1,551 nt of DNA from Escherichia coli (lineage in GTDB: Bacteria; Pseudomonadota; Gammaproteobacteria; Enterobacterales; Enterobacteriaceae): the NCBI RefSeq assembly GCF_024298765.1, contig NZ_CP101221.1. The stretch is one strand, 5' to 3'. Shown here one piece after another: positions 1 through 1,322 of this stretch. Position 1 is the first letter of the stretch, and each line of letters begins with the position of its first letter. Both the position numbers and the translations under genes were made by a program. The notes beneath the pieces were generated by a model. That model ran no database searches and was not told the origin of the DNA. It was given only the letters and a program-made list of their open reading frames with translations.

Positions 1-477
1 ATGTTTATTGATTCAGAAAAACGACTGAAACAACTTTCAGATGAGGCAAAGAAAAACACCGAGGATCTCGAAGAAGCAAAGAAGAATTCAAGGTTTACAC
101 AGGTATCCCCAAAAGGTTGGGAACGCGTTCGAGAGCTGCTGAAGGATAGTCAAGGCATATCAGCACTGAAGCTGTACTCATTTTTAGCGGAGCATATCGA
201 TCCTACGTGTGGCGCTGTCGTTGCGGATCAGCAATTCCTAGCTGAAAAACTTGGAGTTAGCAGAAGCACAATTATTCGGTGGCTCAATTACTTAGAATCA
301 AAAAATGCATTAGTTAGAATCCCCGTTGCTGGTAAGGTTTGTGCGTATGCCCTCGATCCACATGAAGTCTGGAAGGGATACAACACTACGAAAAACCATG
401 CAGCGTTTGTCACTAAAACACTGGTCAACAAAGACGGTGATATTCAGCGCCGAATCATGGCCATGTTTTCAAATTGA
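1..477 (+). CDS. repA: Plasmid replication initiator protein, small winged-helix Rep (pKL1 RepA-like / RepL-like), 158 aa
   Basis: Uninterrupted ORF ATG(1-3) to TGA(475-477), the only long ORF with protein-like composition. It has a charged, Lys/Glu-rich N-terminus and a clear helix-turn-helix segment (DQQFLAEKLGVSRSTIIRWLNYLESKNALVR). Size (~18 kDa) and organisation match single-gene small enterobacterial plasmids. No HUH or catalytic-Tyr motifs typical of rolling-circle Reps are evident. If the molecule is circular, an in-frame stop lies at 1510-1512 and a GAGGG Shine-Dalgarno at 1539-1543, about 8 nt before the ATG. Family assignment is from memory, not from a search. Confidence 0.85.
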   Translation: MFIDSEKRLKQLSDEAKKNTEDLEEAKKNSRFTQVSPKGWERVRELLKDSQGISALKLYSFLAEHIDPTCGAVVADQQFLAEKLGVSRSTIIRWLNYLESKNALVRIPVAGKVCAYALDPHEVWKGYNTTKNHAAFVTKTLVNKDGDIQRRIMAMFSN

Positions 478-1068: not shown

Positions 1069-1093
1069 GGGGTGTCGGGGCGAAGCCCTGACC
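1069..1093. repeat. Left copy of perfect 25-bp inverted repeat (GGGGTGTCGGGGCGAAGCCCTGACC)
   Basis: Exact reverse complement of 1298-1322. The two copies are separated by 204 bp (1094-1297), which includes the oriT nic-like segment. Confidence 0.95.
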
Positions 1094-1260
1094 AGACGGC
1101 AAACGGAATATCGTCGCGGGTGACGGTATTACATTTGCACATCCTGTCCCGATTTCTGAGGCGTTTTAGCGGTGAACGGACGGCAAAACCATGATGGAGC
1201 TGTTGAGCGTTGAGAGCGTGAAATCTGGCAAAAATCACGGCTGGCGAGGCTTGTAGCGGA

Positions 1261-1297
1261 ATAAGCCAGTATACACTCCGCTATCGCTACGTGACTG
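1261..1297 (-). other. ColE1/pMB1-type oriT (bom) nic region, orphan (no relaxase in window)
   Basis: The minus strand reads CAGTCACGTAGCGATAGCGGAGTGTATACTGGCTTA, which as I recall it is identical over about 36 nt to the pBR322 bom/nic region. The adjacent repeat copy 1298-1322 matches the pBR322 sequence just upstream (GGGTGTCGGGGCGCAGCCATGACC) with 2 mismatches. The ColE1 MbeA nick is reported within CTGG|CTTA, i.e. between plus-strand 1265 and 1266 here. Sequence and nick position are from memory. Confidence 0.6.
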
Positions 1298-1322
1298 GGT
1301 CAGGGCTTCGCCCCGACACCCC
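1298..1322. repeat. Right copy of perfect 25-bp inverted repeat (GGTCAGGGCTTCGCCCCGACACCCC)
   Basis: Exact reverse complement of 1069-1093, 25/25. Identity stops at both ends (1297 and 1323 do not pair with 1094 and 1068). Confidence 0.95.

Follow-up and report, generated by a model that had tools for sequence, protein, structure and literature searches.

Two facing orphan transfer origins, of R64 and ColE1 type, in a 1551-bp pKL1-family plasmid of Escherichia coli point to two possible routes of mobilisation in trans

The stretch of DNA analysed here, called the window, is a complete circular plasmid of 1551 bp from Escherichia coli, a cryptic member of the pKL1/Col(MG828) family. It carries two orphan origins of transfer on opposite strands and facing each other: an oriT of the R64/IncI1 type (NikA/NikB, MOBP) at 1068-1155 on the plus strand, and one of the ColE1 type (MOB-HEN/MOBP5) at 1262-1325 on the minus strand. 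We consider it probable, at roughly 0.75, that the plasmid is a relaxase-less hitcher of the pOriT kind to which these two sites would open two routes of mobilisation; the binding and nicking steps, the transfer itself, and the precise places of the nicks are read from homology. With at least one oriT of a known family and no relaxase, the plasmid falls within the pOriT definition given in PMC10123127.

The only credible coding sequence of the window is rep (1-477, plus strand), which encodes a protein of 158 aa with an HTH_36 domain (Pfam E = 1.5e-8). The protein is identical to the Rep of pKL1, and its accession (WP_000469298.1) is common to a 100%-identical record, pKL1, and pG-EA11. Upstream of rep on the circular molecule, an A+T-rich region at 1419-1466 contains direct and inverted 23-nt repeats (TGTCGCATCC...; repeats D1, I2, and I7), which presumably form the Rep-binding site and replication origin, an assignment that we base on position and on what Burian et al. 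1999 reportedly found; the region co-varies with the type of rep across the family. Both a RepA of pKL1 type and, upstream of it, a repeat-containing presumed origin, the features by which the pKL1 family is recognised, were found in the window. An Rfam scan of the whole window detected neither RNAI nor RNAII, so the replicon is not of the ColE1 type. A miRNA-like Rfam hit in the origin repeats, returned by the scan at E <= 1, was set aside as a chance match to a palindrome.

We also looked at the distribution of the plasmid. PLSDB holds many records that come from E. coli, Shigella, or Klebsiella, have the same length of 1551 bp, and are 99.9-100% identical to the window, for example p4-H9 (NZ_CP029183.1), and the typing of the window plasmid in PLSDB/MOB-suite gives the replicon Col(MG828) and the class 'mobilizable', with an empty relaxase field. 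At least 80% of the window is present in 292 of 5426 complete RefSeq E. coli genomes, and a family member of 1549 bp (L006) aligns with it over the full length at 94% identity. The plasmid family is found in E. coli, Klebsiella, Shigella, and Salmonella, a broad host range and a distribution that fits horizontal spread. Tiny plasmids of this kind are common, and the literature regards them as cryptic, stating that they 'only encode repA' (PMC3486847).

No transfer genes were detected. A reading of the letters alone (the sequence-only reading) had proposed that the window encodes neither a relaxase nor accessory Mob proteins, and this was borne out: tblastn searches of the circularised window with MbeA/B/C/D of ColE1 and with R64-type NikA/NikB returned no E value lower than 0.09, there is no relaxase-sized ORF in the window, and Pfam recognised only the HTH_36 Rep, finding no significant family in 13 non-rep ORFs. 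The sole other Pfam listing was Ogr_Delta at E = 0.08-0.09, far under the gathering score. The minus-strand ORFs in the G+C-rich part of the plasmid (504-860, 763-1062, and 921-1238) match no Pfam family; in most relatives, frameshifts or early stops interrupt two of these three, the longest non-rep ORFs, and 921-1238 is open in most and disrupted in two. With no cognate mbeA/mbeC (mobA/mobC) next to the ColE1-type oriT and no nikA-nikB adjacent to the R64-type oriT, both sites are orphans. RefSeq/PGAP annotates a 'hypothetical protein' of 73 aa at 921-1142 on the minus strand, which is probably spurious, having no Pfam family and an enclosing ORF that is disrupted in two relatives. This call overlaps the ssiA-like site described below and the R64-type oriT.

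The ColE1-type block is real and far beyond chance. In a pairwise search, positions 1262-1321 aligned without gaps to ColE1 (NC_001371.1) 1462-1521 with 59 of 60 positions identical (E = 5e-25), and 1262-1325 is identical at all 64 positions to pMB11100_3, a ColE1-like plasmid of 5.6 kb in which MobC/MbeB/MbeD genes are present and the relaxase is typed MOBP. A near-exact pMB1 bom/nic sequence had been claimed at 1261-1322; the site is there, its coordinates were right to within one base, and the reference to which the identities apply is ColE1, not pMB1/pBR322. pBR322 would differ from the window block at 2-3 of 60 positions, and 'ColE1-type' is for this reason the more accurate label. A search with 1240-1340 matched 4776 plasmid records, of which 4389 are typed mobilizable. 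Among the matches listed, the match in nearly all Mob-type plasmids spans query positions 23 to 82-86, which correspond to 1262-1321/1325, and Mob genes were confirmed in two of the matched plasmids, ColE1 and pMB11100_3.

Within this block, the nic core (1262-1285; TAAGCCAGTATACACTCCGCTA on the non-nicked strand) lies in a stretch of identity to ColE1 that extends across 1262-1307. The recognition hairpin, located within 1298-1322, stands 5' of nic on the nicked strand at its native distance; it aligns without gaps to ColE1 1498-1521 with one mismatch in the loop, and an 8-bp stem is predicted for it in single-stranded DNA. From homology and from the published ColE1 nic, we take the putative MbeA nick to lie on the minus strand between 1266 and 1265 (5'-GTATACTGG^CTTA-3'). 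The homology to ColE1 ends right at this presumed nick, and whatever the leading side of bom may have to provide in cis is absent here, which counts against the two-oriT model.

The second oriT matches R64 (NC_005014.1) at 80 of 88 positions (91%, E = 8e-32). Its repeat B hairpin (1069-1093) is identical to that of R64, and so is the nick region TTGCACATCCTGTCCCG (1136-1151), which contains the R64 nick sequence ...TTGCACATCCTG^TCCCG. The right arm of repeat A (1122-1136), reportedly the NikA-binding side (Furuya and Komano), reads GACGGTATTACATTT in the window and GACGGTATTACAATT in R64, with 14 of 15 positions identical and the same spacing, and the left arm (1101-1115) is degenerate, agreeing with R64 at 11 of 15 positions. 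By homology and from the nic site reported by Furuya and Komano 1991, NikB presumably nicks the plus strand between 1146 and 1147 (CATCCTG^TCCCG). The NikA-binding side of repeat A is also referred to in PMC4743918. In R64, the matched stretch lies upstream of nikA-nikB and ends 14 nt before the start codon of nikA, and in an IncI-gamma/K1 plasmid the same stretch is also 14 nt from nikA. Plasmid records matching 1068-1155 number 3642, including 1893 conjugative plasmids, and those among the matches listed are mostly of 85-130 kb. The presence of this oriT also explains why a search with the whole window matched 1443 conjugative plasmids.

Both hairpins of the R64-type oriT are predicted to fold (z = -2.5), and a 10-bp repeat A hairpin is still predicted despite the mismatches in the left arm. 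In oriTs of this type, the complete 17-bp repeat A and the 8-bp repeat B hairpin serve termination. A degenerate left arm of repeat A reportedly could impair this step (Furuya and Komano 2000); termination could suffer in the window plasmid, and the degeneracy counts against the two-oriT model.

The second oriT bears on the proposal of the sequence-only reading that the plasmid can be mobilised only through an MbeA-type relaxase together with a conjugative system. Mobilisation in trans is a sensible expectation for an orphan oriT, but the word 'only' is unsupported in view of 1068-1155, and it is too narrow since the R64-type oriT would allow a single conjugative helper to act without an MbeA-type relaxase. 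The idea of trans-mobilisation is moreover not new, as the plasmid had already been typed 'mobilizable' by MOB-suite and relaxase-less plasmids with ColE1-like oriTs are a described class (PMC10123127).

Together, the two oriTs form a cassette of roughly 254 bp (1069-1322), with a spacer of 119 nt between them. A 25-nt element, GGGGTGTCGGGGCGAAGCCCTGACC, at 1069-1093 on the plus strand has an exact inverted copy at 1298-1322, recovered in the repeat search as inverted repeat I1 (25 of 25 positions complementary, copies 204 nt apart). This element is identical in R64 and present with 23 of 24 positions in ColE1, being the outer hairpin common to both oriT types, and the perfect inverted repeat is thus explained by the sharing of this hairpin. 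The spacer sequence between the facing nick sites (1156-1261) has no homology to ColE1 or R64 and varies more than any other part of the module (37 of 110 columns); it would be the first DNA to enter the recipient from either oriT.

Upstream of the cassette, the plus strand carries at 972-1032 a sequence resembling ssiA (n'-pas, PriA primosome assembly), with 84% identity to ColE1 1308-1367 and 76% identity to CloDF13 137-195; by BLAST, this is the only stretch that CloDF13 shares with the window. With RNAI at 645-749 as a landmark, the ColE1 segment can be placed some 110-170 nt downstream of ori, and ssiA is the PriA primosome assembly signal at that position of ColE1 (PMC3167613), which suggests an ssiA-like role for 972-1032. 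As both this sequence and the ColE1-type block match ColE1, the window is collinear with ColE1 from the ssiA-like site to the oriT. The ssiA-like site is contained in a conserved G+C-rich non-coding module (491-1060) that occurs on other replicons without the oriT cassette: a RepL plasmid (L013) is 82% identical to 491-1060 and an Actinobacillus pleuropneumoniae plasmid (pAP17_1, L015) 89% identical to 606-1060, and both alignments end at 1060. A longer module, 476-1325, is common to plasmids that have a different Rep of 146 aa (L007, L008, L010, and L011). No Rfam family and no conserved ORF were found in 491-960, and no Xer/cer-like core site with up to five mismatches was found in the window.

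To describe conservation, the non-coding module was aligned among nine family members, the window and L004-L011; these are related, non-independent sequences, and the statistics drawn from them are indicative only. The ColE1-type block has 3 variable columns out of 60 and its nic core none out of 24 (n = 9), compared with 23-32% of columns varying in the module overall, which corresponds to a hypergeometric P of about 1e-4 to 2e-7 for the block. In the oriT of I-complex type, neither the hairpin nor the nick core CACATCCTGTCCCG varies, and repeat A is replaced as a unit, both of its arms co-varying. All full-length family copies that were extracted have this same nick core, as do the three conjugative references, and L015 departs from it directly behind TCC.

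At least four alleles of the I-complex-type oriT occur in the family, and they differ only in repeat A. The window (1094-1136) has the R64/IncI1/I-gamma-K1 type, with 90.7% identity to R64 over 86 nt. The type present in pKL1 (L020, 433-516) and pG-EA11 (L026, 832-915) is that of IncK2/Z, with 91.7% identity to an IncK2/Z conjugative plasmid and 80% to R64. A third type, with its own perfect inverted repeat, is found in pNE1092-2 (L004, 1047-1130), and a fourth, adjoining a small 'mobA' gene, in the A. pleuropneumoniae plasmid (L015, 756-841); neither of these two was matched to a helper. In plasmid p4 of Shigella dysenteriae (L011, NZ_CP119455.1; 1822 bp), a clean deletion has removed window positions 1071-1159, that is, the R64-type oriT, leaving a junction at 1317-1321 of L011 and the ColE1-type oriT in place, and the two oriTs are thus separable.

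The invariant ColE1-type block and the replacement of repeat A by whole units argue that the sites are not decaying relics, and both features are expected if the two sites are in use and the part that sets NikA specificity follows different helper plasmids. Going further, and tentatively, the pKL1 family might represent a minimal 'universal hitcher', in which repeat A, as an exchangeable module for NikA specificity, sits between a constant hairpin and a constant nick core and is swapped between lineages to match the circulating I-complex helper, with the invariant ColE1-type oriT as a second, helper-independent route; we regard this extension as possible and rather doubtful.

In the two-route model, the plasmid would be replicated by its own HTH Rep and would contribute no transfer protein. 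The first route would involve two elements, since NikA, NikB, and the pore would all come from a single helper, a conjugative plasmid of the I complex (IncI1/I-gamma/K1 type). With NikA bound to the right repeat A arm (1122-1136), NikB would cut at CATCCTG^TCCCG (1146/1147) on the plus strand, this strand would be pumped through the type IV secretion system of the helper, and the upstream hairpins (1069-1136) would serve termination and recircularisation. The second route would involve three elements: a co-resident ColE1-like Mob plasmid would supply MbeA and MbeC, the cut made by MbeA would fall at GTATACTGG^CTTA (1266/1265) on the minus strand, and the pore would come from any conjugative plasmid that mobilises ColE1. 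Each route has experimental precedents among other plasmids (pEC156, pBuzz, and pST1030-3).

Our literature search found no transfer experiment on this plasmid, which counts against the two-route model. H9Ecoli, the host of a 100%-identical copy, contains an IncHI1B plasmid, an IncI2 plasmid, and a 31-kb plasmid, and no I-complex or ColE1-Mob helper is present among its assembled replicons, so the plasmid persists there without helpers. Similarly, pG-EA11 has been found in O104:H4 strains both with and without the IncI1 plasmid pESBL (PMC3486847). These findings also count against the model, and they are compatible with stable replication and only occasional mobilisation.

The alternative that survives best follows the sequence-only reading: only the ColE1-type oriT would work, so that a ColE1-like plasmid would have to provide an MbeA-type relaxase and a conjugative plasmid would be needed as well. 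The R64-like stretch would then be a decayed relic. The near-invariance of the ColE1-type block in the family and its identity to that of a Mob-encoding plasmid agree with this explanation, as do the degenerate left arm of repeat A and the loss of the R64-type oriT, with retention of the ColE1 type, in L011. However, the nick region is identical to R64 and the NikA-side arm has a single mismatch, and the relatives, unlike relics, have intact alternative alleles of repeat A that match other I-complex plasmids. Furthermore, an R64-type orphan oriT of only 84% identity is functional in pEC156, which is mobilised by R64drd11 and by F and loses transfer when the oriT is deleted (PMC4743918). We consider this alternative unlikely.

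The converse, that only the I-complex-type oriT is used and the ColE1-type block has been kept on other grounds, such as a place in a ColE1-derived priming/ssi segment or the pairing of its hairpin with the other copy, appears very unlikely to us. It would account for the collinearity with ColE1 from the ssiA-like site to the oriT and for the inverted duplication of the 25-nt hairpin, but the conservation takes in the nic core (24 of 24 columns invariant) and not the hairpin alone, and the conserved block has the same boundaries as in thousands of plasmids that are mostly typed mobilizable.

If neither site worked in transfer, and both were hitchhiking remnants of recombination with ColE1-like and IncI plasmids on a plasmid spread vertically or by transformation or transduction, they would decay at the rate of their flanks. 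This does not agree with the strong site-specific conservation beside a variable spacer, with the helper-matched replacement of alleles, or with the broad host range; we hold the explanation to be highly improbable, even though these plasmids are treated in the literature as cryptic (PMC3486847) and one host without cognate helpers exists. Finally, the 254-bp segment might be a small mobile cassette, MITE-like or produced by relaxase-mediated oriT recombination, with the 25-bp inverted repeats as its ends and not as oriT parts, for which one can cite the upstream module shared by L013 and L015 only up to 1060 and without the cassette, the module shared up to exactly 1325 by plasmids with different rep genes, and the ability of NikB to recombine oriT copies mentioned in PMC4902927 with reference to Furuya and Komano 2003, but this is extremely improbable, as the native hairpin of the respective oriT fully accounts for each repeat, no target-site duplication or clean empty site was seen, and the 7 nt between 1061 and 1068 belong to neither block.

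Within its own family, the window shares the same Rep, the architecture, and the ColE1-type oriT with pKL1 (NC_002145.1; 1549 bp) and with pG-EA11 (NC_018660.1) of the O104:H4 outbreak strain; these two differ in having a repeat A of the IncK2/Z type, whereas that of the window is of the R64 type, and the overall identity is about 94%. The bom site of pBR322/pMB1 is mobilised by ColE1-type Mob proteins acting in trans together with a conjugative plasmid. It resembles the window in having the same nic core and hairpin with no mob genes in cis, but pBR322, an engineered replicon of the ColE1 type, has just one oriT, while the window is a natural, Rep-dependent replicon of the pKL1 type with a second oriT of another family and with ColE1 homology that ends at the nick.

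Closer in its organisation is the group of pEC156, pKPN2, and pSe-Kan, which are also natural, small enterobacterial plasmids that lack a relaxase and have two orphan oriTs of different types, the R64 type being one. These are ColE1-type replicons of 4 kb or more whose second oriT is F-type, that of a conjugative plasmid, whereas in the window the second oriT is that of a mobilizable plasmid (ColE1) and the two oriTs are inverted and share a hairpin. According to the accounts of pBuzz (1982 bp, rolling-circle; Moran and Hall 2019) in PMC9282650 and PMC11389934, a co-resident plasmid of the I complex (B/O) mobilises it very efficiently. As described there, and compared by description, pBuzz is like the window a tiny cryptic plasmid of E. 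coli that has rep as its only gene and two inversely oriented orphan oriTs, and it differs in its rolling-circle replicon, in its size, and in that both oriTs are reported as B/O-related.

The account of pST1030-3 (Oliva et al. 2020) in PMC9282650 describes an orphan Mob-associated oriT and co-transfer with a ColE-like Mob plasmid and an IncI1 plasmid, and for such dependence of an orphan oriT on two other plasmids, one ColE-like with Mob functions and one conjugative, PMC9282650 and PMC10123127 use the term 'hyper-parasite'. Like the window, these plasmids have an orphan Mob-associated oriT, which is ColE1-like in the pOriT plasmids of Ares-Arroyo et al. 2022. The pOriTs of PMC10123127 are mostly ColE1-family replicons thought to have been derived by loss of the relaxase gene, whereas the pKL1 backbone is unrelated to that family, so its oriT was probably acquired by recombination.

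A hitcher that relies on orphan oriTs is a known and published kind of plasmid (pBR322 bom, pEC156, pBuzz, pST1030-3, Ares-Arroyo 2022), and only two points appear mildly new: oriTs that face each other and have a hairpin in common, and, within the pKL1 family, repeat A alleles matched to helpers. Two orphan oriTs would explain how such a plasmid may spread without any transfer gene, one hitcher being able to exploit conjugative plasmids by a direct route and mobilizable ones by an indirect route, and they would correct mobility predictions that rest on relaxase genes. The practical value lies in the annotation of plasmid mobility and in the study of helper-hitcher networks, and the current picture of conjugation is unchanged. 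If the matching of alleles to helpers is true and undescribed, it would provide a natural system for oriT specificity determinants and for helper-hitcher co-evolution.

Three further observations were made. In pAP17_1 (L015, 303-841), a 'mobA' gene for 141 aa directly adjoins the I-complex-like oriT; its product is probably a NikA-like accessory protein, and the typing of this plasmid as Col(MG828) and 'non-mobilizable' looks like an underestimate of its mobility. The 5' arm of the shared hairpin (GGGTGTCGGGG; window 1069-1082 and 1309-1322) resembles the nic motif of CloDF13 (L012, 9752-9762), published as GGGTG/GTCGGG (PMC5935869), and one hairpin motif is thus seen in oriTs of the ColE1, R64, and CloDF13 types, which use three different relaxase families. 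Reading the window element as a CloDF13-type oriT was considered and dropped, as the match contains indels, BLAST links CloDF13 to the window through the ssiA-like stretch alone, and R64 fully explains the second copy. Directly outside the ColE1-type oriT, an isolated strong hairpin at 1325-1353 (AAGGGCGTTGCG...CGCAACACCCTT; -11 kcal/mol, z = -3.3) is confined to family members with the 158-aa Rep, and it could be a terminator-like or Rep-related site.
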